From: Minisyncoccia bacterium
Lineage (GTDB): Bacteria; Patescibacteriota; Minisyncoccia; JACQLN01
Length of the DNA stretch: 64,000 nucleotides
Direction: 5' to 3'
NCBI GenBank assembly: GCA_049274895.1
Contig: JBASTM010000008.1
Coordinates: 645 to 64,644, forward strand
The notes beneath the pieces are model-generated. The model had not been told where the DNA came from and searched no databases. It saw only the letters and a program-made list of their open reading frames with translations. The position numbers were made by a program, and so were the translations under genes. Below are positions 9,441-23,464 of the stretch, one piece after another; within the stretch, counting starts at the first letter, position 1, and each line of letters opens with the position of its first letter.

Positions 9441-9572
9441 GCAGTATTCTTGAATTAGTCCGAACGCACTTTTCCGAAAAAATTCCCCCGCGAAAATTCG
9501 GAAAGGCGGCGGAGCCGCACCGCTGACAATTTCAAGTTTTTCCCTGCCTGCCGGCAGGCAGGTTTGGCGGCA
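9441..9572. repeat. GC-rich noncoding element, copy 1 (shares ends with 58109-58370) carrying the palindrome CCTGCCTGCCGGCAGGCAGG
   Basis: 31-nt 5' block GCAGTATTCTTGAATTAGTCCGAACGCACTT and 3' block ACAA.TTTTCCCTGCC…GTTTGGCGGC are shared with the second copy; perfect 20-nt palindrome at 9542-9562. Confidence 0.6.
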
Positions 9573-9618
9573 TTCAATTCAAAGATTCGCGAAGCGAATA
9601 TAAAATGAAAATTTCAAA

Positions 9619-10275
9619 TTACAATTCTTTTCTCTCCTTTGCGTTTTTGACCACCAATTCGGCTAGTCGAAGTGTGGTTTCAAACGTCTCTTCTTTTCCC
9701 GTAATTTCCTTTCTCGCCTCAACCTCTGCACGATCTTGGGCAATAATTTCTTCTACAGTCATACCTTCTTTGATTTTTGGGACGATCCGCTCAAAATATC
9801 TTTTAACTCTCCCGTTACTAAGAACCGCTTGTATTAATTCCAGTTTTTCTGCTTCTGAAATATCTTTTTCCATTCGTTCACCATACGCACGTTTTGCCGA
9901 TTCTGTAACTCCAACAAAATCAGATACCGAGCTATCTACCTCTGGATTTTCGGGGGCAGATAATTCCTTTTCCGCGTTTTTATTATCAAAAATTGCAACT
10001 AGCTCTTTTTCATCGGCAACACCAGCCCGAGAGAACACAAGAGCATCATATTTTGGGTCATCAGAAAATCCAGTTTCTATTAAAGAGGCGTTTTTTCTTT
10101 TTTCCTCTGCCTGCTCTGATGAAATTCTACCTGCTTTTTCCATCGCAGAAAGCTCGTCATTCAATGCCCCAAGAAAAATGGCTCTTGGGTCTTCTACAAT
10201 TTTCTCTTTTTCTTCCGGCTTTGGAGTTTCCTCCTGCGGTGGAACTGGATTATTAAAAGGATTTTCTATGCTCAT
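9619..10275 (-). CDS. Hypothetical acidic protein
   Basis: 218-aa ORF with normal composition, preceded by the conserved 130-nt tRNA-distal module; the overlapping + strand ORF 9605-10543 is S-rich and likely spurious. Confidence 0.5.
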   Translation of the reverse strand: MSIENPFNNPVPPQEETPKPEEKEKIVEDPRAIFLGALNDELSAMEKAGRISSEQAEEKRKNASLIETGFSDDPKYDALVFSRAGVADEKELVAIFDNKNAEKELSAPENPEVDSSVSDFVGVTESAKRAYGERMEKDISEAEKLELIQAVLSNGRVKRYFERIVPKIKEGMTVEEIIAQDRAEVEARKEITGKEETFETTLRLAELVVKNAKERKEL

Positions 10276-10299
10276 ATATTTTTATTGGTTAATTATTAA

Positions 10300-10438
10300 A
10301 AAGAATTTTATGATTTTGATTAAAAATTTTTCTTCCCCCAAAATGCGAAATCGTGAATTCGTTTTTACCCCCAAAATTGAATACCAATTAGTCGCCGAGC
10401 GAAGCGAGGCGAACCAAAACTCTTTGACTTTTCCTGTC
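10300..10438 (-). repeat. Conserved ~130-nt module between tRNA-Arg and the downstream gene (copy 1 of 2)
   Basis: About 90% identical to 59340-59468 located after tRNA-Leu(GAG); contains GTCGCCGAGCGAAGCGAGGCGAACC and GGGGGAAGAAAAATTTTTAATC just before the ATG of the downstream gene. Confidence 0.7.
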
Positions 10439-10514
10439 TGGTGTCCCTGGCAGGAATTGAACCTGCGATCTCTTCCTCCGCAGGGAAGCGCTCTATCCGC
10501 TGAGCTACAGGGAC
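10439..10514 (-). tRNA. tRNA-Arg (anticodon GCG) with encoded CCA
   Basis: Minus-strand reading GTCCCTG…D-arm GCTCAGCGGATAGAGC, anticodon stem-loop CTTCC-CTGCGGA-GGAAG, T-arm GCAGG-TTCAATT-CCTGC and ACCA. Confidence 0.7.
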
Positions 10515-10522
10515 AAAATTGT

Positions 10523-11218
10523 TTATGTAATTTTGTCTTTTAATTGTCTGGCTATTTCTAAGAGTTCTTTTCTAATGTCACTATCCAAGTAAGATATGAA
10601 ACAGATTCCCATAAAATTTTTTCTAAACCTTCTCGTCTTACTGCGTTTCTTAAAATATATTTTTCCGAATTGATTCTGTGGAACCTCCAGTAGATTTGAC
10701 CAGAATTTTTTTGAGGAGGAGGTATTGTGGTAATGATGCAAATGCAATCTTATTCTAAATTTATCGTTGTTTATTTTATAACACCTTCTTAATAACGATA
10801 TGTAAAACAGTGCTAAATTTGGATCTGTATTAACAAATTTTAGTCCGCTTACCCCTTTATACTTTGCACCCTCGGCCCAATATAGCATTACCAGCAAAGA
10901 CTTCCAAAACCCAGGGTCTCTCAAGGGATATCTAGATATTTCAGGAGTAATTTTGTCTCTTAGAATTTTTTCCCGCTTTTTCCGTTCCGCTATCTTTACC
11001 GTTTTTGCTAGTGTCCTTATTCTAGCAAGGTGTAAAAGTTGGGCCTTTCTATCAAATACTCCAGGATACTTTTCCCCCAGCCAGCCCGATAGGGTACTTT
11101 TAGGTATATCTAATTTGTCGGTTATATCTTTGTAAGATTTGCCCTTTGAGCGGAGTTTTTCTGCTTTTCTCCTGGTATCCACACCGTAAACCTTTCCTCG
11201 CATAGTAGTTACGAACAA
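10523..11218 (-). CDS. HTH-domain protein with a possible degenerate LAGLIDADG-like nuclease domain
   Basis: N-terminal HTH (KSYKDITDKLDIPKSTLSGWL); central LLVMLYWAEGAKYKG…NTDPNLALFYISLL resembles a degenerate LAGLIDADG helix; ends 9 nt from tRNA-Arg. Confidence 0.3.
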   Translation of the reverse strand: MFVTTMRGKVYGVDTRRKAEKLRSKGKSYKDITDKLDIPKSTLSGWLGEKYPGVFDRKAQLLHLARIRTLAKTVKIAERKKREKILRDKITPEISRYPLRDPGFWKSLLVMLYWAEGAKYKGVSGLKFVNTDPNLALFYISLLRRCYKINNDKFRIRLHLHHYHNTSSSKKFWSNLLEVPQNQFGKIYFKKRSKTRRFRKNFMGICFISYLDSDIRKELLEIARQLKDKIT

Positions 11219-11265
11219 GATGATTATTTACTAAATCTTACCATCTGTAGTTCGTATACGCAAGG

Positions 11266-11721
11266 TTAAAATTTTAAGAACCTAGCTAAGGCGTCTATGG
11301 TTGATTCGCTGTGTTCCTTTTCGGGAACCGTTGGCGAAATCATATTCCGAACTGCTTCGGAGTCTATGCCGGCCAGCGGCACTTCCAGATGCAGATTAAG
11401 TATGTTTTTACCCTCCAAGCTTAAAACATTACCACTCTCGCGTTCAAAAATCCAGAACGATTTGAAGTTGTTTAAGGCGTGTTCCTTGTCGCCGATTTTT
11501 AGGGTTTCCGAATCTAAAACAAAAATATACTCGCGGGGTTCTTTTAAGGCGTAGATGTTTAAGACTCCGGCGGCCAGAATTATAAAAACAGCCAAAAGAT
11601 AGCTTTTCAAAATTACGGCCACCGCCACCACAGCCGCGGCCAGAATCCAAAGCGAAACAAACCAGTTGGTCTGCCGTTCGGGTTGTTCAAATTCGTACGC
11701 CTGCCATTCCAGCTTATCCAT
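11266..11721 (-). CDS. Hypothetical membrane-anchored protein
   Basis: 151 aa with an N-terminal pair of TM helices and a soluble C-terminal domain. Confidence 0.45.
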   Translation of the reverse strand: MDKLEWQAYEFEQPERQTNWFVSLWILAAAVVAVAVILKSYLLAVFIILAAGVLNIYALKEPREYIFVLDSETLKIGDKEHALNNFKSFWIFERESGNVLSLEGKNILNLHLEVPLAGIDSEAVRNMISPTVPEKEHSESTIDALARFLKF

Positions 11722-11887
11722 GGTTTTTCGAGGATTTTATAGGGTTTTTTGTCTACTTATTGTAGGTTTATTATAGATATTGATTTTGTCCGTATTGTGT
11801 GTATACTTAACAATGTCTTTTGGTTCTACCATGAACTGAAAGGGTATTACATCCAAGGGCCACTCTCCTCGCGGAGGGTGGTTTCTT

Positions 11888-12457
11888 TTATTGCCCATCT
11901 TTTGTTCGATGCCGAAGTTCCTTACCCCAAACATCTGTCTCTAGGTTCAGTACGTCAAAATATCCATTTCCGCCCGTTCTCAATTCTTGCGAGATATTAT
12001 TTTTTGAGGAGAAAATAAAAACTTGTTTGTTTCCTTTTTTCAAATAGGTTACAAGTGCTAGAAAATCCGAATCTCCTGTAAATAAAACGGCGGTGTCATA
12101 TTTTGATGCATGATGGATTGCGTCGATTGTTATTTCTACATCCATATTTCCTTTCTCTTGAATAGATTCGCCGTGTTCGTCCGCGATAGAGATCCTTTTT
12201 AGTTCTTTTTTCCGTACTATAAATTTAAGTCCTTTTTTTAGGTAGGTCAAAAATTTATGCTTTCCATCAAGACTGTATTTTCTCGTACCATCAGCGGGAT
12301 ATGCCGTGTAATAAAATACTTGAATTGAAGTAGCGTTTAATTTGTTTTTAATATAGCTGATCAATTTTTCGTAATCTAAAAACTTCCCTTTGGCTTTTTG
12401 TGCGGCCCATAGATTGGAAGCATCAATAAAAACATAGATTTTCTTACTCCGGAACAT
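11888..12457 (-). CDS. NYN-domain (LabA/PIN-like) putative RNase
   Basis: KIYVFIDASNLW…VLFTGDSDFLALV is characteristic of NYN/DUF88; the start is set at MFRSKK because the upstream extension overlaps tRNA-flank repeats. Confidence 0.6.
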   Translation of the reverse strand: MFRSKKIYVFIDASNLWAAQKAKGKFLDYEKLISYIKNKLNATSIQVFYYTAYPADGTRKYSLDGKHKFLTYLKKGLKFIVRKKELKRISIADEHGESIQEKGNMDVEITIDAIHHASKYDTAVLFTGDSDFLALVTYLKKGNKQVFIFSSKNNISQELRTGGNGYFDVLNLETDVWGKELRHRTKDGQ

Positions 12458-12505: not shown

Positions 12506-12632
12506 GCGGCGGGGGTGAGATTCCTTTCGCTCCGACTCAAGTCGGGTCGCTGCGCGCACTCGCTCCCTTCTCATCTCACTCGCACGCCAAGACTTTGGCG
12601 TGCTCCCCCATCCTCGCTCACTTTGTTCGCTG
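12506..12632 (-). repeat. Structured insert downstream of tRNA-Ser(TGA) ending in an 18-nt direct copy of the tRNA 3' end
   Basis: GCGGCGGGGGTGAGATTC at 12632-12649 is repeated at 12506-12523; the spacer shares ACAAAGTGAGC / GAGATGAGAAGGG / GGAGCGAAAG motifs with the tRNA-Glu flank. Confidence 0.6.
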
Positions 12633-12719: not shown

Positions 12720-12833
12720 TTAATTTCTCGGCAAAGCCTCGGTCAAAAATATGAGCTATCGCGTTTGCCCGGGTTGCTTTTGCAACCCGTCTAACGTTAT
12801 CCCATAACGTTAGACCCGCTCTAGCACCCCGCC
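12720..12833 (-). repeat. Upstream flank of tRNA-Ser(TGA): conserved tRNA promoter motif plus insert ending in a 17-nt copy of the tRNA 5' end
   Basis: TTTTTGACCGAGGCTTTGCCGAGAAA also precedes tRNA-Leu(GAG); CGCTCTAGCACCCCGCC at 12703-12719 is repeated at 12817-12833; hairpins GTCTAACGTTATgggATAACGTTAGAC and CGGGTTGCaaaaGCAACCCG. Confidence 0.6.
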
Positions 12834-12900: not shown

Positions 12901-13025
12901 GGAGGCGTGGCCGAGTGGGCTGGGGGCTGTGGGACAGCGCCCAGCGGGTTGCAAAAGCAACCCGGGAGTCCGAGGCCACACATATTTTTGATTGAGTCCC
13001 GCCTTTGGGCGGGACGAGAAAATAC
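12901..13025 (+). repeat. Upstream flank of tRNA-Ser(GCT) beginning with an 18-nt direct copy of the tRNA 5' end
   Basis: GGAGGCGTGGCCGAGTGG at 12901-12918 and 13026-13043; the spacer contains the same CGGGTTGCAAAAGCAACCCG hairpin as the tRNA-Ser(TGA) upstream insert, in opposite orientation. Confidence 0.6.
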
Positions 13026-13113
13026 GGAGGCGTGGCCGAGTGGCTTAAGGCAGCAGTTTGCTAAACTGCGGGGGTCTAAAAAGCCCCACGAAGGTTCGAA
13101 TCCTTCCGCCTCC
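13026..13113 (+). tRNA. tRNA-Ser (anticodon GCT), type II
   Basis: Acceptor GGAGGCG/CGCCTCC, anticodon stem-loop GCAGT-TTGCTAA-ACTGC, long variable arm and T-arm GAAGG-TTCGAAT-CCTTC. Confidence 0.8.
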
Positions 13114-13164
13114 GCATTGACAACTTTTTATCGGCATGACCCGAGTGCCTATAAAAAAGTTGAA

Positions 13165-13198
13165 ACAAAAAAGAGTGGTTAATACCGCTCTTTTTTGT
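13165..13198. terminator. Bidirectional terminator hairpin
   Basis: AAAAAGAGTGGTtaatACCGCTCTTTTTT between tRNA-Ser (+) and the recombinase fragment (-). Confidence 0.5.
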
Positions 13199-13203
13199 TT
13201 TCT

Positions 13204-14112
13204 CTACTCTTCAATCATCGTTATTTTTTTATCTTTGTAGTTTAGTCTGCTTCGCAGATTTGCGAGCAGTTCACGCTTGTCTGATACGCTACCTTCTTTC
13301 AGTAGATATCTAGCATATTGGCGGATGTTCACATCATTTTCTTCGACCAGTGCTTTTCCGATCTGACCATTCACGATCTTCTGTAACTTATTGAACCGCC
13401 TAATTTCATCCTCGAGTTTCTGTCTCATGCCAAGCTCATTGATATTTACCTTATCCATAATTTTTAGAAACTCATCAATAAGTTCTTCCTCACGAATATA
13501 TTTGTTTTTGCAGTTGCGATCTCTTGCCCGACTGCATCTGTAGTAGATGTAGTGTGCCGACGTGCCATCTTTGAGTGGTTTCCATTTTTCCTCAGCTGAT
13601 ATGCCGGACTGGCAGTACCCGCAGGTGAATAATTTTGTGAAGGCGAATTCTTTATTCTCCCTGACTATTTGATCGCGCTTCAGTTGTGCTTGAGCTTTTT
13701 CAAACAACTCTTGGGTGATAAGCGGTTGATGTTTACCTTGATACCAATTACCACCCTTTCTTGGGTATTCAAACAGCCCGTAATAGAAGGGGTTATCAAG
13801 TATGCGATAAACCCCGGAGAGTGTGAGTGGCTTATTACCTCTGGTATGGAAATTCAGTTCAAACTTGAGCCAGTTGTAAATCTTTCTGCCCGAGTAATGT
13901 TCATATGCGACCTTCTCGAAAATTTTCTTTACAGTCGGCGCTCGGAGCGAATCAATGGCAATCTGACATTTCTTATCCATGAGTTTCTGATTGAGATAGC
14001 CAAGTGGTGCCACTCCCGGCCATAAACCCATCTCCACCCTTGTTCGCAATCCTCTTTTAACATTAATGCCTCGATTGTCGTTTTCGAGCTTCGCTTGTGA
14101 GCCTAAAATCAT
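13204..14112 (-). pseudogene. Large serine recombinase fragment lacking the N-terminal resolvase catalytic domain
   Basis: Begins at the alphaE-helix-like QAKLENDNRGINVKRGL, then the recombinase domain (GLWPGVAPLGY) and zinc ribbon (CGYCQ…YYRCSRARDRNC) with a coiled-coil tail; there is no room upstream for the Ser-nucleophile domain because the Nudix gene abuts it. Confidence 0.55.
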
Positions 14113-14157
14113 CAGTAAAAATTTTTCATTAGGATTGTTAGAGAATTTTTGTTACCT

Positions 14158-14595
14158 TTATAGTTTTTTTACTGCATTTTTATAACCTTCTCTCATATTC
14201 AGATCATCAATTTCAGATATCGGAACCCATTTGTATTCAATATGTTCGTCGCTATGATTGATTTCTTTTTCGTTGGAAAAACATTCGTATACTAAAACTA
14301 TAAATTGATATTCCATATCCTCTTTTTGCGAAGTAAAAGTCCAAACATCAACTATCCTGCCAACTTCTAAGTCATTCCATCCAAGTTCCTCTCTAAACTC
14401 TCTTTTTAGGGTTTCTGCCGGATTTTCACCAAAATCAATTTTACCTCCTGGGAGTTCCCAAACGCCCTTATGATCTTTAACGAAAAGAATTTCATCACCT
14501 CTTTTTAATATTCCTTTTACAGTTGTTTTTTGTGTTTTTGAGTTCATAAAATTATATTTGACATAGTAACCCGCTTTTGTTATTTTGTAAACCAT
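14158..14595 (-). CDS. Nudix hydrolase
   Basis: Nudix box GGKIDFGENPAETLKREFREELG. Confidence 0.7.
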   Translation of the reverse strand: MVYKITKAGYYVKYNFMNSKTQKTTVKGILKRGDEILFVKDHKGVWELPGGKIDFGENPAETLKREFREELGWNDLEVGRIVDVWTFTSQKEDMEYQFIVLVYECFSNEKEINHSDEHIEYKWVPISEIDDLNMREGYKNAVKKL

Positions 14596-14649
14596 TCAGA
14601 TAACAGAAGGTTCTTTAACAACAATACAGTGAGAAAGGAGTGTGTTGAG

Positions 14650-15828
14650 ATGACACAGCGAATCATCATACTTATTATAGACAGTGTCGGCATAGGAGAG
14701 CAACCAGACGCGCATTTTTACAACAGTATCGGGGCAAATACCCTGCACCATGCCGCTCAGAGTATTGATGGATTCCATGTCCCCAATCTTCAAGAATTGG
14801 GCCTTGGCAATGTATTCGGCGTCTGCGATATATCTCCAGTCTCCGAACCAAAAGCGAGCTATGGCAGGATGGTTGAGGTAACCGGCGGCAACGACACATT
14901 TGCTGGTGTTTGGGAGATGGCCGGGGTTGTTTTTGAGGGAAGATTTACATCGTTCAGTCCCAAGATCCCGGATGTCCTTGTCGAGAAACTCCAGAAAAGT
15001 ATAGGCACAGGAACACTATGCAATGCCTATATCTCGGGTTTCAAGGCATTGGATGAGTTTGCTGATGAACACTTTGCCTCTGGCGAACCTATAGTCTATA
15101 CATGCGACGACGGTGTTGTTTTAGTCGCTGCCCACGAAGATATTCTGCCTCCCGACAAGTTAAGGATTATCGGGTACAAAATGTCACGCTTTTTTGCTGG
15201 CATGAATGTTAGCAGAATAATAGCCCGTCCTTTTGTTGGCACAAAAGGACGGTTCGTCAGAACTGAAAATCGTCGTGATTTTATAGTCCCATTTACAATG
15301 CAGGGGGTGCATTTGTTTCAGAGAATCAAGGAGGTTGGAGTCAATTTTACTACAACGGAGCATCTGACATCTCTCATTGGTCAGAATTTTGTTACCGAAA
15401 CCATTCCCGGTGTCAAAGATTCGTCGGGTATCATGGATTCGGTTTGCGAATTTCTACAAAGAGATGTTTCTGGCGTATCAATGTTTGTGGTTCCAGACTT
15501 TGACATGTCTGGACACAGAAAAGAGCCCAAAACATACGCTTCTGATTTGGTTGCATTCGATCAGATGCTTGGCGAGGTCTTAGGGCTTACAAGGCAACAA
15601 GATATTCTTGTAATTGTTGCTGATCACGGATGTGATCCGGTATTGCCCATCAGAGGACATACTAGGGAATACGTTCCACTCCTGGTACTTAATCAGAATT
15701 ATCCTGGTCAAAACCTTGGCACGCGGGAAACATTTGCCGATTTAGGGCAAACTATTTGTGATTTAATTGGCTCCGACCCAATTTCGGTTGGGAAGAGCTT
15801 TGCCAGGCAAATCCTTGAAAAGGAGTGA
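14650..15828 (+). CDS. Phosphopentomutase-like (DeoB/alkaline-phosphatase superfamily) enzyme
   Basis: N-terminal IILIIDSVGIGEQPDA and C-terminal VADHGCDP match DeoB metal-binding motifs; SD AAGGAG lies 9 nt upstream of the ATG at 14650. Confidence 0.55.
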   Translation: MTQRIIILIIDSVGIGEQPDAHFYNSIGANTLHHAAQSIDGFHVPNLQELGLGNVFGVCDISPVSEPKASYGRMVEVTGGNDTFAGVWEMAGVVFEGRFTSFSPKIPDVLVEKLQKSIGTGTLCNAYISGFKALDEFADEHFASGEPIVYTCDDGVVLVAAHEDILPPDKLRIIGYKMSRFFAGMNVSRIIARPFVGTKGRFVRTENRRDFIVPFTMQGVHLFQRIKEVGVNFTTTEHLTSLIGQNFVTETIPGVKDSSGIMDSVCEFLQRDVSGVSMFVVPDFDMSGHRKEPKTYASDLVAFDQMLGEVLGLTRQQDILVIVADHGCDPVLPIRGHTREYVPLLVLNQNYPGQNLGTRETFADLGQTICDLIGSDPISVGKSFARQILEKE

Positions 15829-15834
15829 ACCAAA

Positions 15835-17001
15835 ATGTTCGATTCCAGGGAGTTAGCCATAAATGGCGGCAACGCAGTTTACCCCGATGGTCTTAAACGG
15901 GGCAGAGTTTTTGGGAAAGAAGAAAAACAAGCTGTTTGTGAAGTTATGGAGAAAGGAGTGGTCTCACGGGCAGGTTGTGGTGAAAAAGTTCAGTTATTCG
16001 AAAAGTCTTTCGCTGATTATCACGGCGTCCGCTACGCGATAGCCACTACCTCAGGCACAACAGCTCTTCATACGGCTTTGGACGCATTGGGCATCGGGCC
16101 GGGTGATGAGGTAATTGTCCCTGATCTGACTTTCATTTCCACAGCTTCTGCCGTCATGCAGACAGGAGCTCATGTTGTCTTCTGCGATATAGATGTTGAT
16201 ACGTTTAACATGTCCGCTGAAGATCTAGAACGGAGGATTACGCCAAAAACAAAAGCTGTGATTGTGGTGCACCTTTATGGAGCGCCAGCGGACATCGCGA
16301 GTATCCTTGCTGTTACTAGAAAACACAACCTTTGGTTGGTAGAAGACTGCGCCCAAGCACATGGTGCTAAGTTCGATGATCAGCTTGTCGGCACCTTTGG
16401 TGTTATTAGCTGTTTCAGCTTCTACCAAAGCAAGAACATGAGCTGCGGCGAAGGTGGTATGGTAATCACCGATAATGAAGATTTGGGTCGCCGTGCGAGG
16501 TCAATAACAAGGCACGGCCTTATCGGGGATGACCTAGCCGCATATGACTACGACAAGCTGGGGTATAACTATGCGATGACTGAGTTGCATGCTGCCATAG
16601 GAATTGTTCAGCTTGGCAAACTGGAACAAATGAACGAACAGAGAAGTATCAACGCAGCCCTATACAGAAAGGAGTTGGCGGGTGTAGGTATGAAATTCCA
16701 ACGGGATATTCCTGGGCATGCGAATCATTATCTGACGGCTGTTCTCCCGGAATTATACGGGGAACACCGCGGCAAGTTTCTTGCGGCTGTCCGCGCTGAA
16801 GGCGGTATGATCAATTGCCTATATCCAATCGCACTTTCTAGAACAAAGTTGTTTACTGCTCTATCTGATAAACCGGAAATTTCCGATAGGGTAGCCACAA
16901 CATTGTTTAACCTTTATGTTAATCCGGATGTATCCGATACATTCGTAAGAATTTGTTGTGATGCGATCAAAAAAGTTCTTAAAAGTAATAAGGGAGGATA
17001 A
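15835..17001 (+). CDS. DegT/DnrJ/EryC1/StrS-family PLP-dependent sugar aminotransferase
   Basis: Fold-type I aminotransferase with the CAQAHGAKF…SFYQSKNMSCGEGG (Schiff-base Lys) region typical of DegT. Confidence 0.7.
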   Translation: MFDSRELAINGGNAVYPDGLKRGRVFGKEEKQAVCEVMEKGVVSRAGCGEKVQLFEKSFADYHGVRYAIATTSGTTALHTALDALGIGPGDEVIVPDLTFISTASAVMQTGAHVVFCDIDVDTFNMSAEDLERRITPKTKAVIVVHLYGAPADIASILAVTRKHNLWLVEDCAQAHGAKFDDQLVGTFGVISCFSFYQSKNMSCGEGGMVITDNEDLGRRARSITRHGLIGDDLAAYDYDKLGYNYAMTELHAAIGIVQLGKLEQMNEQRSINAALYRKELAGVGMKFQRDIPGHANHYLTAVLPELYGEHRGKFLAAVRAEGGMINCLYPIALSRTKLFTALSDKPEISDRVATTLFNLYVNPDVSDTFVRICCDAIKKVLKSNKGG

Positions 17002-17101
17002 GAATGGCTATATGTTTTACAGGAGCGAGATGCTTAATTTGGTATCCGCTCCTTTTTATTCCAATAAAAAAGGCCCCACTTTTTTCAGTGAGGCCGCAAA
17101 T

Positions 17102-18259
17102 TCATTGCATTGTGGCAAACCTTTGACGCATAGTCTCGGCTTGTTTAATGATTCGGCATTCCACTTGTTGTGCGGTCATACTCTCGGCTTCCAACCAGAA
17201 AACAACTGCTCTCCGAATAAATATCAGTGAAAGGAGATCGCCACATCTTTCTCGTTGGTTCGCCGTAAGATTGCCATCCGCGAATTTGGATAAAAAACGA
17301 TAAAGAACCTCTGACCAATCTTCAGCTGAAAATACTGGTTCAGGCGCAAGCATTCTTCTCTCTATTGTTAAATAAAAGTCTTCCAGGAAAAAGAGATATT
17401 CTTCCTTGAGACGTTTAAATCTTTCCGTAGCGTCAGCCATTAACTTTTTTGCTTTTTCCTTGTGAGGGAACATGGCTTTGTCGTCTATACCAACTCGAGA
17501 TGGCGGTTTAAGATTAATATAACGAACAGTTTGATGGCCCACCCTCCAGTAAGAACTGATGCATTCAAGAGCCGTCTGGGATACTTGTGTAAACATGGGC
17601 ATGATCTTGGGAAAGCTGGGTTTATGAAACTTTTTACCAAGAAAAGACTCGCCAATTTTAAATCCTCCGCCTATTGAATGAAGAGTCATGAAGATGTCTA
17701 TGCCATATTGAAAAGCAGTAGGCGGTACCGTCCGTGACAATAGATAGTCCACCACCTCTTTGCTTAGCGCGAATTCTCCTCCGATTGGCTGGCGTATAGT
17801 GATGCCGAATACTGCGCAGATCAAGGGTAGCGCCAGATGGTTTGTTATACTGCCCTCAAATCTATTCCTACTGTATAGCGGGCACACATAATCGCAGGCA
17901 CCGTCAGTCACAGGGCTAATCAAGTTAGGAACCCACGACGGTTCTATTGTCAGTAGGTCAGCATCGAAAGTCGCTGTGACTTTTGCACCGATTGAATGGC
18001 TATACCCAAACAGCGATAGTAAGTTTTTTCCCTTACCCCTGTTCTCCCCGCCAGTATTAATGAAATGCTTTGAACATTTGGTTTCTGTGGTGAGAAAAGC
18101 AGATCTAGTACCGTCAGAACTATTATTATCAACATTAACTATGACACACTCCTGTGACATGAATGTTTTGGATAAACCCGCGTCAATGATTGACACGACA
18201 TTGCCGATAGAATCGGCCTCATTAAAAGACGGGATTCCCACAACTATCTTGGTTTCCAT
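17102..18259 (-). CDS. GT2-family (GT-A fold) glycosyltransferase
   Basis: IVVGIPSFNEADSI near the N-terminus and DxD-like TFDADL. Confidence 0.5.
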   Translation of the reverse strand: METKIVVGIPSFNEADSIGNVVSIIDAGLSKTFMSQECVIVNVDNNSSDGTRSAFLTTETKCSKHFINTGGENRGKGKNLLSLFGYSHSIGAKVTATFDADLLTIEPSWVPNLISPVTDGACDYVCPLYSRNRFEGSITNHLALPLICAVFGITIRQPIGGEFALSKEVVDYLLSRTVPPTAFQYGIDIFMTLHSIGGGFKIGESFLGKKFHKPSFPKIMPMFTQVSQTALECISSYWRVGHQTVRYINLKPPSRVGIDDKAMFPHKEKAKKLMADATERFKRLKEEYLFFLEDFYLTIERRMLAPEPVFSAEDWSEVLYRFLSKFADGNLTANQRERCGDLLSLIFIRRAVVFWLEAESMTAQQVECRIIKQAETMRQRFATMQ

Positions 18260-18534
18260 GGATCATATCCTCCTATTTTTATTGTGTTTGTAAAGGAACT
18301 TGTTAGCTAAACTAAAAATACAGACTATTATACGCTTTGTCAAATTATCCACAAATATACATACCTAAAACAATCCGATATTATGATAGATTAGTAACAT
18401 ACCTATTTAGTTATCGGCAATAAAGAGACACCCGCAATGCCTTTTTATAGTGTCTTATTTGTCTCATTTTGAAATCAGACCCCCGACCCACATGCCTAAA
18501 ATCCAGCCCTGTTCAGACGCTCAAAAAACCCTTA

Positions 18535-18662
18535 TAATGCTTGCATAGTACGGGCACTTAACCCGAGTACACCGCAATAATCCGCAAGGACAGCTGGGAG
18601 CTGTCCGAGCGGCTCGAACCATATTTTGCCTGCCTACCGGCAGGCAGGTCGGGGTTTTTTAT
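18535..18662 (+). ncRNA. Candidate small RNA (promoter-like TTATAAT followed by nested hairpins and a terminator)
   Basis: CTTATAATGCTTGCATAG, then hairpins (GACAGCTgggAGCTGTC and CGAGCggCTCG), then GCCTGCCTACCGGCAGGCAGG + TCGGGGTTTTTT; sits in a 420-nt intergenic region. Confidence 0.2.
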
Positions 18663-18719
18663 TTCCGTATTTCTCTCAAAATATATTTTGTGGTAGATTA
18701 TTTATATATTTAATTTTTT

Positions 18720-19046
18720 ATGTCCGACGCTATAGAAAGGTACCAGGGCTTAGGTAGTAAAGAAGAAACAGGGGATCTCTCCGGTCTTTTTGACGATGAA
18801 GAATCCGGTGAAACCGGAGAAAACAAAACAGAACTGACTCCCGAACGGGTCGCCCGGGTTTGGGATAAGTTAAGCGATATAGAAAAAAAGTTTGTGACCA
18901 CAACCGACGAACAGTTTGCTGCTATTATTCCCGGATACGAAGAGAAATATGGCGAGAAAAAAGCCGGCGTAATCAAAGCCCTACGCAAGCTGATATTGTC
19001 GGGCGACCCCAGAGCTGGTTTAATTCAGGCCGAGGCGAGTTTGTAA
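18720..19046 (+). CDS. Hypothetical acidic protein, translationally coupled to tgt (TAATG overlap)
   Basis: 108-aa ORF whose stop overlaps the tgt start. Confidence 0.4.
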   Translation: MSDAIERYQGLGSKEETGDLSGLFDDEESGETGENKTELTPERVARVWDKLSDIEKKFVTTTDEQFAAIIPGYEEKYGEKKAGVIKALRKLILSGDPRAGLIQAEASL

Positions 19047-20218
19047 TGTTTAAGATTCTAAAGAAAGATTCCAACTCAAAAGCGCGACTCGGCGTTTTAG
19101 AAACTCCGCACGGCGCGGTGGAAACTCCAACTTATGTAGTGGTGGGCACGCATGCCAAGGTCCGCGAACTTTCGCCTCAAGACCTTATCAATTCAAAAAC
19201 TCAAATTGTTATCGCCAATACCTATCACTTATGGCAGGCGTTGGGCGACGAGGGGCTTAAAAAATATCAAGGGCTACATCAAGCTATGAACTGGAACCGC
19301 CCGCTGATGACCGACTCGGGCGGATTCCAGGTTTTTAGTTTAGGTTTTGCCCGGGAGTTGGGTGTTGGGAAGATAGGTGATAGGTCCAATAAGACCCATA
19401 GGACCGATAAGGAAAAGAATTTGGTTAAGATTACGGATGATGGCGTCTATTTTCAAGTTGACGGCGGTGAGCAGTTTTTGGACGCCGCCAAATCAATTTG
19501 GATCCAGGAACAACTCGGCGCGGATATTATTTTGGCTTTTGACGAGCCCACTTCGCCTTTGCACGATTATAAATACAATCAAGAGGCATTAACACGCACT
19601 CACCGCTGGGCGGCGGAGTCGCTTAAAGCCAAAACATCCCAGCAATTTTTGTATGGCATTGTTCAGGGCGGCTTGTTTGAAGACTTGCGCCAAGAGAGCG
19701 CCAAGTTCACTAGCTCTTTGGATTTTGACGGTTTCGCCGTGGGCGGATCTTTCGGCGCGTCGTTCGGCGGCGAAGGGCGGTCCTTCGCGGAATTAGATTG
19801 GGTGGTGCCGCATTTGCCCGAAAACAAACCGCGCCATCTTTTAGGTATTGGCCTTGTGGAGGATTTGTTCGCGGGCGTGTCTAAAGGCATAGATACTTTT
19901 GACTGCGTGGTGCCCACGCGCGAGGGCCGGCACGGCAATTTGTACACGTCGCAAGGCGAAATTAACATCCAGCGCGGCCTGTATCGGAGCGATCAAACAA
20001 TTTTAGATCCCGATTGCCGATGCGAAGTCTGCGCCGTAAAAAAAACCAGCCGCGGCCAGCTGCGCCAGTTGTTCAAAGATAAAAACCGCGAGGCCGGCTA
20101 CTTGGCCTCGTTCCACAACGTTTATTTTTTCAACAACCTGATGGCCCAAATCCGACAGGCCATCGCCGCGGGGAGGTTTGGAAAATTGATGGCCGAGAGG
20201 TTAGCAGTCCGCTCGTAA
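19046..20218 (+). CDS. tgt: Queuine tRNA-ribosyltransferase
   Basis: LMTDSGGFQV catalytic region and C-terminal zinc site CRCEVC…H; an in-frame insertion is present. Confidence 0.85.
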   Translation: MFKILKKDSNSKARLGVLETPHGAVETPTYVVVGTHAKVRELSPQDLINSKTQIVIANTYHLWQALGDEGLKKYQGLHQAMNWNRPLMTDSGGFQVFSLGFARELGVGKIGDRSNKTHRTDKEKNLVKITDDGVYFQVDGGEQFLDAAKSIWIQEQLGADIILAFDEPTSPLHDYKYNQEALTRTHRWAAESLKAKTSQQFLYGIVQGGLFEDLRQESAKFTSSLDFDGFAVGGSFGASFGGEGRSFAELDWVVPHLPENKPRHLLGIGLVEDLFAGVSKGIDTFDCVVPTREGRHGNLYTSQGEINIQRGLYRSDQTILDPDCRCEVCAVKKTSRGQLRQLFKDKNREAGYLASFHNVYFFNNLMAQIRQAIAAGRFGKLMAERLAVRS

Positions 20219-21340: not shown

Positions 21341-23464
21341 ATGCCCGCTTCAATTATAAATTGCTCTGATCTTAAAGAAGCCGATGTGGTTTTGTTGGGC
21401 GCCAATTACGACGTCACTTCGTCTTTTGGCAAAGGGGCGAGCCATGGCCCGGCGGCCATTATTGATTGCTTGCATACCCAAGTTGAATTTTTAGACCGCT
21501 ACACCGGCCTGACGCCGCGGGATCACTTGAAGATCGCTTACCAAGATTTGGGTGATCTAAATTCGCTTAGTCCCGAGGCAATGGTGGACAGAATCAAAAA
21601 CGCTTACGGCGAGCATTTGGGTTTTGGGCGTTTCAACATTCTTTTAGGCGGCGAGCATTCCGTGACCAGCGGGGCCTTAAAAGCCATCGGCCAGCGCCAT
21701 TTTCCGTCCGAAATAACCGTGGTGCAACTGGACGCCCATTTTGATTTGCGCGACACCGACGAGGATTTTAACGACCAGCCGTGGGGCAGGTATTCTCATG
21801 CCACAGTGATGAGGCGGGCCTTTGAACTCGGTTATAAAATAGTTTCGGTGGGCGTGCGGGCTTATTCCGGCCAAGAATACGATTTTGCCCGCGAGCGCGG
21901 CATTGCCTTTTTTGAATGGGGTAAAGGCAGGGTGCCTTCTCACCAAGAAATCTTAAAGGCCATTACCACCGACAAAGTTTATTTGACCATAGACGCGGAC
22001 GGTTTTGACCCGGTGCATCTGCCGGCCACCGGCACGCCCGTGCAGGGCGGGCTGGAATGGAATTACGCCTTAGGGCTGATAAGTGAAATTTTTAAGCATA
22101 AAAAAGTTGTCGGCGCCGATGTGGTGGAGGTTTCACCCAGGGCGGGCGATACGCTGACCGAATACGGCGCCGCCCAAATTTGCCATAATTTAATGGCCGG
22201 GCATTTAAGCGGGACCGATAAATTAAAAAATATGAATACAGAACCTGATTTTGGGCTTGACGGGAATCCGGGCCATCAAGTTGTTGGTGATGGCCAAATG
22301 GGCGCGCCGGTGATCGGCCGCAGCGTGGCAGAATGCGCTTCGTTAAAAGATATTTTTGAAAATGCCCTGCCGGCTTTCGGCGGAGCTTATCTTAAAAGAG
22401 TTTATAGTATTTTACGCCAGGCCATTTTAAACAACGTGCCTCTGGTAATAAGTATAGCCGGGCCGGTGACCGTGTCCGATCAGCACCGCGCCTGGCTGAT
22501 TCCCTTGCTGGAAACCGGCTGGGTGGCCTATTTAACTACCACCGACGCCGCCTGCTACCACGACGGCCACGACGCCTTGTATAAATCAGCCCCAGGGGAT
22601 CGCCCCATAAAAGAAGTTGATATTTTCGGCGACGACGGCGCTTACCGCGAAGCGGGAATCATACGCGTGGCCGATACCGGATTCAAAGAACAAGTTATTT
22701 TTGACCAGGACCGGATGATTTCGGCCGTGTTGCAACGTCCTGAATTCCAAAAACGCATGACCACCACCGAGCGCAATTATATGTTGGGTCGGTATTATCA
22801 AAATCAGGAAGAGGAAGTCGGTGTTCGGCCGGGGTTACTCTCCACTTGTTCGCGTTTGGGCCTGCCGGTGTTCGTGGGCGCCGCGGCCGACGGCAGCGCT
22901 TTTCTCAACTCCGTAAAACTGTGGGCCTTAAACCGTGTTTCCAACCGCCCCTATTGGTTTGACTATGATCTCCACGCCGACGTTTTTGAAAGCTGCGCTT
23001 ACCATTATTGGGGTCTTTTTGATTCCGAAGCCAAGGCCTTGGGCGCTTTGATTTTGGGCGGGGGCGTGCCCAAAAATTACAGTTTGCAGCCCGAGCCGAC
23101 GCTGTCGCAGATATTTTTGTTGCCGGGCATCCGCGGCTACGATTACGACGTCCAGATTGTATCTTCTCCGGTAACCGACGGCAGTTTATCTGGCTGTCTT
23201 CCGGCCGAGGCGGTGAGCTGGGGTAAGGTTAACCCCGAAACTTATCGCCAGCAAACCGAGAGCATGCAGGCCGATTATTCTATGGTAATGCCCTTCATCG
23301 TCAAAGCCCTGCTGGATGATCCCGCTCTTCCACGCCGGCCCCAGCTGGGTTTGTATCATCGCCGCCAGGAACTGGTTAACAAACTTTTTGACGCAGTGGC
23401 CCAGAACCAAGCGGCCATTGAAGAAACCTTAAATTATCCCCTTAAAATTGTAGCCAGTGCTTAG
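21341..23464 (+). CDS. Fusion protein: ureohydrolase (agmatinase/arginase family) N-domain plus deoxyhypusine-synthase-like C-domain
   Basis: N-terminal half GGEHSVT…DAHFDLRD…DADGFDP (Mn-binding ureohydrolase motifs); C-terminal half GGGVPKN…AEAVSWGKV (deoxyhypusine/homospermidine synthase NAD-site and catalytic-Lys motif). Confidence 0.6.
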   Translation: MPASIINCSDLKEADVVLLGANYDVTSSFGKGASHGPAAIIDCLHTQVEFLDRYTGLTPRDHLKIAYQDLGDLNSLSPEAMVDRIKNAYGEHLGFGRFNILLGGEHSVTSGALKAIGQRHFPSEITVVQLDAHFDLRDTDEDFNDQPWGRYSHATVMRRAFELGYKIVSVGVRAYSGQEYDFARERGIAFFEWGKGRVPSHQEILKAITTDKVYLTIDADGFDPVHLPATGTPVQGGLEWNYALGLISEIFKHKKVVGADVVEVSPRAGDTLTEYGAAQICHNLMAGHLSGTDKLKNMNTEPDFGLDGNPGHQVVGDGQMGAPVIGRSVAECASLKDIFENALPAFGGAYLKRVYSILRQAILNNVPLVISIAGPVTVSDQHRAWLIPLLETGWVAYLTTTDAACYHDGHDALYKSAPGDRPIKEVDIFGDDGAYREAGIIRVADTGFKEQVIFDQDRMISAVLQRPEFQKRMTTTERNYMLGRYYQNQEEEVGVRPGLLSTCSRLGLPVFVGAAADGSAFLNSVKLWALNRVSNRPYWFDYDLHADVFESCAYHYWGLFDSEAKALGALILGGGVPKNYSLQPEPTLSQIFLLPGIRGYDYDVQIVSSPVTDGSLSGCLPAEAVSWGKVNPETYRQQTESMQADYSMVMPFIVKALLDDPALPRRPQLGLYHRRQELVNKLFDAVAQNQAAIEETLNYPLKIVASA

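Follow-up and report, generated by a model that had tools for sequence, protein, structure and literature searches.

A tRNA-Ser(GCT)-linked island with a truncated serine integrase and a four-gene cassette in a Minisyncoccia bacterium

Contig JBASTM010000008.1 of the Minisyncoccia bacterium assembly GCA_049274895.1, a Parcubacteria/“Minisyncoccia” metagenome-assembled genome (MAG) from a tiny bacterium of the groundwater type, contains, next to a tRNA-Ser(GCT) gene, a fragment of a large serine recombinase (integrase) and four genes for predicted enzymes, followed by tgt. We analyzed this locus in a window of 64,000 nucleotides (positions 645 to 64,644 of the forward strand of the contig), to which all coordinates without a locus name refer. 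A preliminary description had taken positions 12901–18259 to be a decayed integrative island. The tRNA-Ser(GCT) gene, which is the integration target and bears the bacterial attachment site (attB), is intact and lies at 13026–13115 on the forward strand (ARAGORN; Rfam tRNA, 58.8 bits). Alignment of the junctions with the attB of a relative (locus L002) and the phage-type site (attP) of locus L087 placed the element at 13117–18576, a length of 5,460 bp. The borders given in the preliminary description were thus off at both ends, and positions 12901–13025 form a structured element of their own.

The integrase fragment (13204–14151, reverse strand) corresponds to the 3′ two-thirds of the gene, residues 130–444 of 444, and was recognized by Pfam, NCBIfam and PHROG. 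Its longest open reading frame (ORF), at 13204–14112 on the reverse strand with an ATG at 14112, encodes 302 aa and matched the Pfam domains Recombinase (PF07508, 1e-16) and then Zn_ribbon_recom (PF13408, 6e-10), as well as a PHROG integrase (3e-38). The Resolvase domain (PF00239), which holds the catalytic serine, was not matched in the Pfam profile search of this ORF, as expected of the remnant without catalytic domain that had been proposed. In-frame similarity to the full-length enzymes starts at 14151, or residue 130 of 444, which shows that the first 129 codons, and with them the catalytic N-terminal domain, were deleted rather than frameshifted. The breakpoint between the fragment and the cargo block falls at 14152–14157: integrase similarity ends at 14151, and the stop codon of the Nudix gene (14158–14160) is only 6 nt away. 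The best NCBIfam similarities of the integrase were to CcrB and CcrA, at 79 and 48 bits; these scores are so far under the cut-offs of 900 and 700 that the enzyme is not a Ccr. No other recombinase and no small excisionase-like ORF was found within 13117–18576 by ORF listing and Pfam. Since the catalytic domain of the integrase is lost, the element should no longer be able to excise.

All four enzymes are encoded between the integrase stump and the left (P) arm of the element. The Nudix gene, on the reverse strand, diverges from the phosphopentomutase-type and DegT genes, which are followed by the glycosyltransferase gene on the reverse strand; annotation of each enzyme with profile hidden Markov models agreed with the identities first suggested for them. 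The Nudix hydrolase (14158–14547, reverse; Pfam NUDIX, PF00293, 71 bits, 1e-19) is 129 aa long in the NCBI annotation, and its ORF could reach 14595. Its translation includes the Nudix box GGKIDFGENPAETLKREFREELG (pattern GX5EX7REUXEEXGU), and protein P0241 is 100% identical to it. The sole PADLOC match in the island, PDC-S07, is a generic Nudix model and therefore does not speak for a role in defense. The next gene (14650–15828, forward) encodes a predicted phosphopentomutase (PPM)-type metalloenzyme, which scored 324 bits against NF003766 (cut-off 256) and 299 bits against TIGR01696 (cut-off 341). In an alignment with PDB 4lr7, the motifs IDSVGIG, GGNDT, DFDMSGHR, ADHGCDP and HTREYVP could be seen at the places of the catalytic Thr and Mn-binding motifs of DeoB (DSVGIG, G-x-DT, DFD..GHR, ADHGNDP and HTREYVP), and the catalytic Thr and the metal motifs are conserved relative to the B. 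cereus PPM (PDB 4lr7/3m8w); the 100% identical protein P0121 is named phosphopentomutase. The gene for a DegT/DnrJ/EryC1-type, pyridoxal phosphate (PLP)-dependent sugar aminotransferase (15835–17001, forward; PF01041, 351 bits, 1e-104) starts 6 nt past the PPM gene. Its translation contains the PLP lysine motif SFYQSK, and among solved structures it comes closest to inosose, perosamine, Kdo8N and ArnB aminotransferases; no NCBIfam equivalog cut-off was reached.

The fourth gene (17102–18259, reverse) encodes a GT-A glycosyltransferase of family 2 (GT2), found with both Pfam (7e-8) and NCBIfam, which has 385 aa and a C-terminal extension of ≈150 aa. It stayed below the GpgS/MGS cut-offs (NF010496, 57 bits vs. 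262; PF21969, 24.9 vs. 27), and a PDB match to GpgS (2e-5) indicates GT-A fold-level similarity only. An exact-sequence lookup gave no match; relatives in JGI metagenomes were at most 47% identical, were not syntenic with DegT, PPM or Nudix genes, and had no conserved neighbor on clustering. The region upstream of the GT2 gene (18260–18345, reverse), with a TTGACA-17-TATTTT site at 18343–18315, makes up the right end of the cargo block, where nucleotide homology to locus L179 stops. Another 102 nt of element DNA (18346–18447), without a match in any locus compared, lie between the block and the P arm. Virion or packaging genes were not found in the element with Pfam or PHROG.

For the attachment (att) sites, we aligned attB from L002, attR and attL from the window and attP from L087 on their core. 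In this alignment, attB consists of CGCCTCCGCA joined to ATAATCCGCAAGGACAGCTG, attR of CGCCTCCGCA joined to TTGACAACTTTTTATCGGCAT, attL of CCCGAGTACACCGCA joined to ATAATCCGCAAGGACAGCTG, and attP of CCCGAGATCACCGCC joined to AAGACAATTTTTTATCGGCAT. Each junction in the window is thus composed of one host half, similar to the L002 attB, and one element half, similar to the L087 attP. The sequence common to attB and attP is CCGC(A) alone, a core of 4–5 nt, as expected of a serine integrase. The first of its two copies in the window, the attR core CCGCA at 13112–13116, comprises the last bases of the tRNA gene region. On the tRNA side, attR is identical in kind to the L002 attB, and on the opposite side it continues into the P′ arm (TTGACAAYTTTTTATCGGCATGACCCGAG). 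The right end of the element (13117–13203, reverse) includes this arm, which begins TTGACAACTTTTTATCGGCATGACCCGAGTGCC, and the integrase terminator hairpin at 13163–13200; it is conserved 3′ of the integrase stop in L081, L087, L088, L170 and L172, and the changes in the hairpin are compensatory. The second copy of the core, at 18572–18576, is part of the left end (18448–18576, forward) together with the P arm (ACTTAACCCGAG). Positions 18448–18575 matched the far arm of the L087 attP (74% over 133 nt, BLAST E = 9e-13), and positions 18483–18546 matched L172 (80% over 64 nt, BLAST). Outside the element, at 18577–18719 (forward), lies original host DNA that was once located directly 3′ of the tRNA gene, in which ATAATCCGCAAGGACAGCTG leads into a hairpin and then a terminator at 18628–18660; window 18572–18607 is 94% identical to L002 7868–7903, directly 3′ of the tRNA-Ser(GCT) gene of L002. 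A second copy of the tRNA-Ser(GCT) 3′ end was not found within the 64-kb window, which fits a serine rather than a tyrosine integrase. An apparent copy of the tRNA end in L038 turned out to be an artefact, caused by a run of N at a gap in the scaffold.

The island is missing from two relatives in which the tRNA-Ser(GCT) site is unoccupied, L002 and L005. In L002, whose tgt is 72% identical, synteny is kept across a glycosyltransferase gene, RecG, tRNA-Arg, a membrane protein gene, two tRNA-Ser genes, acidic ORFs and tgt, and a single amidohydrolase gene occupies the place of the island. In L005 (tgt 70% identical), the acidic ORF comes immediately after the tRNA-Ser(GCT) gene, and another ORF and then tgt come next. 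In the window, tgt (19046–20218) encodes a canonical bacterial Tgt (TIGR00430, 382 bits vs. cut-off 307) and overlaps, in a TAATG, with the acidic ORF at 18720–19046 (108 aa, pI 4.6), as the coupling described earlier would have it. The acidic ORF is retained upstream of tgt in L002, L005 and L001, none of which has island genes beside tgt. Because both genes lie beyond attL and their arrangement is kept without the island, they are old neighbors of the tRNA, unrelated to the element. In L005, tgt is split into two ORFs (1080–1586 and 1583–2452 within 1080–2452; two tblastn segments), which could be due to a frameshift, a sequencing error or an insertion.

The cargo also stands out in composition. 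By tetranucleotide usage, no part of the 64 kb deviated more than the 4.2-kb windows over 13–18.2 kb (z = +2.7 to +2.9), whose correlation with the average of the whole window was 0.71–0.73, against ≈0.94 elsewhere. GC content at third codon positions (GC3) was 0.23–0.46 in the island genes, the Nudix gene being lowest at 0.23, and 0.48–0.64 in sampled core genes. By composition, the cassette is foreign to this genome. The att junctions, the attP form and the two empty sites identify the island, on sequence grounds, as a real foreign element at the 3′ end of tRNA-Ser(GCT), and the horizontal acquisition next to a tRNA gene that had been proposed is borne out.

The closest relatives of the cargo are found in other Patescibacteria. 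Homologues of the PPM were 75% identical, then 54–65% in Patescibacteria and ≈40% in Firmicutes, and those of the Nudix hydrolase 72–75%. In L179, a 4.4-kb contig without phage genes, PPM, DegT and GT2 are encoded together at 75, 82 and 84% aa identity; the contig is 77% nt-identical over window 14557–18345, and its right flank differs past 18345. Around all three of the PPM homologues examined at 63–65% identity, we found a module of six genes, in which a Nudix gene diverges from genes for a methyltransferase, a Gfo/Idh/MocA oxidoreductase, PPM, DegT and a GT2 of 293–304 aa (L180 5593–11248, L181 5646–11332 and L186 5571–11235). The flanks are different in each case: the L180 module adjoins tRNA-Thr and two tyrosine integrases, and that of L181 tRNA-Glu. 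The window cassette is a reduced version of this recurring Patescibacteria module. It uses a different GT2, of 385 aa, and the methyltransferase and oxidoreductase of the module were not found within the window. Literature searches turned up no description of the six-gene module.

The integrase belongs to an unusually conserved family. Full-length homologues of 443–446 aa, 82–94% identical and with a Resolvase, Recombinase and Zn-ribbon architecture, make up more than 100 clusters when proteins are grouped at 90% identity. Only a few of them bear source names, and these derive from MAGs assigned to Niyogi-, Levy-, Yanofsky- and Kerfeldbacteria. Other loci have, directly upstream of the integrase, genes for a ParB-methylase and the small and large terminases, the terminases adjoining the integrase in L087, L170, L176 and L178, and the integrase is present on three IMG/VR viral contigs. 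In all copies, the stop codon is followed by a terminator hairpin and a conserved arm with TATAGGCACTCGGGTC and, further on, ATGCCGATAAAAAnTTGTC, beyond which the sequences diverge. In the window and in L088, L089, L174 and L175, this arm lies directly against the tRNA-Ser(GCT) 3′ end; in L172, it lies against tRNA-Ser(GGA). The P0033 integrase was found in two states: at a tRNA-Ser(GCT)-type 3′ end in L088, and in the attP form in L087, where the arm runs on into further phage-type genes, such that phage-type genes lie on both sides. In L174 and L175, ≈6 kb of copper cargo lie inside the element, between the integrase and the tRNA-Ser(GCT) junction at the element end; in L174, this copper-resistance block (5777–11726) includes a CsoR-like regulator, a P-type ATPase and a multicopper oxidase. 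At tRNA-Ser(GGA) in L172, a mini element of 3.7 kb (≈7760–11443) has a far junction that resembles a complete attP-like site. The integrase-bearing, phage-like contig L170 also encodes, at 1834–3246, bAvd and the reverse transcriptase of a diversity-generating retroelement, along with another serine recombinase. No description of the integrase family turned up in literature searches.

The constraint on the integrase is far above that on host core proteins; Tgt, for example, has ≈50% aa identity to that of a Yanofskybacteria MAG. The window fragment has 94% aa and 79% nt identity to the full-length integrase P0002 of L081. Synonymous divergence (dS) was saturated, and we therefore used codon-position identities and deviations at conserved columns in place of the ratio of nonsynonymous to synonymous rates. 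Third-position identity to L081 was only 0.50, with a different codon at 150 of 298 conserved residues, which together with the high protein identity reflects very strong purifying selection. The 315 codons of the fragment are intact, with neither frameshift nor stop. At 210 alignment columns conserved to at least 95%, the window copy deviates at four, compared to a mean of 2.4 for 102 intact homologues, 23 of which likewise deviate at four or more. With no sign of relaxed selection, the truncation is either recent or the stump is still constrained. The term “decayed” used in the preliminary description thus fits the missing N-terminus, but not the rest of the integrase fragment, which has accumulated no excess substitutions.

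Taken together, the data are best explained by an element of a serine-integrase phage family that docked at tRNA-Ser(GCT), became immobilized and carries a foreign four-gene cassette, a reading to which we assign a probability of roughly 0.75. On this reading, an element of a Patescibacteria temperate-phage family inserted at the extreme 3′ end of the tRNA gene via its large serine recombinase, by recombination within the 4–5-nt core CCGCA, leaving the tRNA intact. It has lost all phage functions and the first 129 integrase codons and is therefore unable to excise. How the cassette arrived is less certain. We lean slightly towards a history in which a small non-phage form of the element, similar to L172 or L174, brought in the cassette as its cargo; a later deletion of ≈0.5 kb would have clipped the integrase, removing the gene from its 5′ end to the Nudix stop. 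Several observations weigh against this reading of the island. The nearest homologues of the cargo genes (72–84%) are Patescibacteria genes, at identities similar to those of core genes, and the contexts of the nearest Nudix homologues were chromosomal and housekeeping in both cases examined (thymidylate kinase, nucleoside phosphorylase, pyrophosphatase). No close relatives of the DegT, GT2 or PPM, or of the cargo genes generally, were found on IMG/VR viral contigs, none of the other integrase loci examined contains the Nudix, PPM, DegT or GT2 gene, and no phage structural gene is left in the element. The pathway may also be incomplete, as the window lacks two enzymes of the full module, the oxidoreductase and the methyltransferase.

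The foremost alternative is that a complete prophage integrated first, and that the cassette later replaced its interior by illegitimate recombination, in which case the integrase was not the deliverer. In typical family members, the position of the cassette is occupied by genes for terminases and ParB-methylase, and the left border of the cassette falls within the integrase gene. The right border, at 18345, is shared with L179, whose flank differs, suggesting that the cassette is an independent unit, and the module elsewhere adjoins tyrosine integrases and other tRNA genes. However, replacement needs two breakpoints and an insertion, compared to one small deletion for a cargo-bearing variant; small and cargo-bearing variants are known (L172, L174); and a search of both cassette borders for repeats or microhomology gave nothing significant, the only match being the 8-mer TTTATAGT, which is at chance level. 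We consider replacement the unlikelier course, though one to be taken seriously. Delivery by a tRNA-targeting integrase, as originally proposed, consequently stands in part: the family does abut tRNA-Ser genes in other genomes, and it may have delivered this cargo, but later replacement of the interior of a resident prophage would also account for the cargo.

It is improbable, by comparison, that the truncated integrase has been kept on purpose, its recombinase and zinc-ribbon DNA-binding domains still binding the att sites so as to block related phages or hold the island in place. The intact 315 codons without excess substitutions at conserved positions and the 302-aa ORF from ATG 14112 would suit such a role, and the fragment could be co-transcribed with the Nudix gene, as terminator prediction gave none in between. 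A recent deletion accounts for the same data, though. No promoter-like site was seen upstream of 14112, in a scan that yielded sites at chance level (12 vs. 12.2 expected) and is uninformative on expression of the stump. Among 120 homologues listed, only a few are short (275–329 aa, e.g., P0053, P0085, P0103 and P0113), all of them on contigs of 1.1–1.6 kb where they may be cut off. Just as doubtful is the broader scenario in which this one conserved integrase family serves a guild of Patescibacteria phages and mini elements that dock at tRNA-Ser 3′ ends, shuttling cassettes such as copper resistance and an amino-sugar module fed by pentose phosphate between reduced genomes, with the beheaded stump an att-site blocker that locks in the cargo and excludes related phages.

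The remaining explanations fare worse. An assembly chimera, with a cassette from another organism spliced in by the assembler, might be suspected from the deviant composition of the block and from the source, a MAG contig, but it would require two independent mis-joins leaving and re-entering the same element at both ends, and the homology to L179 identifies the cassette as a real contiguous unit; we regard it as very improbable. Vertically inherited host DNA, with an unrelated recombinase relic and no island, would agree with cargo genes of Patescibacteria type at core-like identities, but can hardly be reconciled with the att arms on both sides of the block, its deviant composition and the empty sites in two relatives, nor is the cluster conserved in all relatives or an intact recombinase absent everywhere, the pattern by which the preliminary description would have recognized vertical inheritance. 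A role of the cluster and tgt in a modified-base (7-deazaguanine) or nucleoside-glycosylation pathway has only the adjacency of the Nudix and pentose mutase genes to tgt to commend it and is next to negligible, as tgt is a canonical gene outside the element, and no queC/D/E or dpd-type genes and no tgt/DpdA paralogue were found within 13117–18576 with Pfam, NCBIfam or PADLOC.

The proximity to tgt is thus coincidental, and the earlier preference for glycan synthesis is the better one; a phage connection of the DegT and GT2, which the preliminary description had suggested checking, was not seen in the scan of viral contigs. Our best guess at the product of the cassette is an amino-sugar for the cell surface. 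The cassette combines a presumed ribose-phosphate branch (Nudix and mutase) with an aminotransferase and a glycosyltransferase. The nearest characterized DegT relatives act on keto-sugar nucleotides or inososes; taken with the two further enzymes of the full module (oxidoreductase and methyltransferase), this suggests a likeness to amino-sugar pathways of the Arn, Wbp, Gnn and Ntd types. Tentatively, and with rather less confidence than in the origin of the island, we propose that a pentose or hexose phosphate is converted to an amino-sugar and that the GT2 attaches this sugar to a lipid or surface acceptor.

There are additional insertions around the tRNA genes of this region. Two divergent tRNA-Ser genes are each preceded by an insertion of ≈100–125 nt (12720–12833, reverse, and 12901–13025, forward), which opens with an exact 18-nt copy of the 5′ end of its own tRNA. 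The two insertions are 79% identical and have in common an invariant hairpin, CGGGTTGCAAAAGCAACCCG; covariation is seen in another hairpin and in a closing stem, and the fold z-scores of the insertions are −6.3 and −5.3. They are missing from L002, where the two tRNA-Ser genes lie 90 nt apart, and had no match in Rfam or IMG/VR. A second family, of ≈95–220 nt, is located 3′ of tRNA genes and ends in an exact 17–18-nt copy of the tRNA 3′ end (window 5115–5226, forward, and 12506–12631, reverse; L002 7480–7605 and ≈7915–8105). These insertions agree in layout, each having a hairpin that covaries, GAGATGAGAAGGG and a motif resembling GAGCGAAGCGA. The tRNA-Glu copy shows a clean presence/absence difference from L002, and the copy at tRNA-Ser(TGA) is present in both genomes and conserved. 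Six genuine 3′ insertions were found among 76 tRNAs in the sequences compared, all six in this lineage. They could represent very small scars with att sites on either side, miniature mobile elements or trailers resembling tRNAs. At 9619–12457, a 218-aa ORF, a gene for a 231-aa helix-turn-helix protein and an NYN-domain nuclease gene, with GC3 of 0.30–0.35, have no counterpart in the syntenic L002 region, and the 9–13-kb stretch is deviant in tetranucleotide usage (z ≈ +2), which suggests further insertions around the tRNA cluster. Downstream of tgt, at 21341–23464 (forward), a 707-aa fusion of an arginase/agmatinase-family domain and a deoxyhypusine-synthase-like domain, presumably a polyamine enzyme, is conserved in L002 and L005 (57–71% identity).

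Most Patescibacteria (the candidate phyla radiation, CPR) have yet to be cultured, and the routes by which these organisms with their very small genomes acquire accessory functions are poorly understood. With att sites resolved to the base pair, an attP form and empty sites, the present locus documents a serine-integrase phage family that docks at tRNA-Ser ends and is able to carry metabolic cargo. Its attB/attP pairs and conserved integrase are candidate tools for genetic manipulation of CPR bacteria and for linking phages to hosts in metagenomes, while the six-gene module probably modifies the cell surface, the interface of these epibionts with their hosts.

A degraded tRNA-linked island or cryptic element is an ordinary and familiar kind of object. 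Less usual is a serine recombinase that docks at the last bases of tRNA-Ser genes, as is the remarkable conservation of the integrase across Patescibacteria contigs. tRNA ends are typical targets of tyrosine integrases; serine integrases are usually found in protein-coding genes. The full-length homologues share their Resolvase, Recombinase and Zn-ribbon architecture with the integrases of phiC31, Bxb1, A118 and TP901-1 and with the SCCmec Ccr recombinases. As in other phages and elements with large serine recombinases, the attB/attP core is very short, without long direct repeats, and the integrase gene is located terminally, adjoining an att arm. The window element differs from these in its target, the 3′ end of tRNA-Ser, in its Patescibacteria host range and in the loss of the catalytic domain. 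It resembles P4-type islands with tyrosine integrases in its insertion at a tRNA 3′ end that leaves the tRNA intact, its metabolic cargo, its deviant composition and the empty sites in relatives, but the recombinase is of another class, and the core has 5 nt instead of a 15–50-nt direct repeat of the tRNA end. Like cryptic (“grounded”) prophages and integrase-less remnants, it is flanked by att sites, has an inactivated integrase and has retained its cargo without excision; in this case, however, the integrase stump is the sole phage gene left, and the interior is a sugar-metabolism cassette. The cassette itself is comparable to the ArnB/ArnC, WbpB/WbpE, GnnA/GnnB and NtdC/NtdA pathways: the DegT matches the ArnB, PseC, LegC, WbpE and perosamine synthase models, the window GT2 weakly matches ArnC and polyprenyl-phosphate glycosyltransferases, and the full module in L180, L181 and L186 adds the Gfo/Idh/MocA oxidoreductase and the methyltransferase. 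It differs from these pathways in that no equivalog cut-off is reached, that the window copy is without oxidoreductase and methyltransferase, and that a phosphopentomutase-type enzyme and a Nudix hydrolase are fixed parts of the module.

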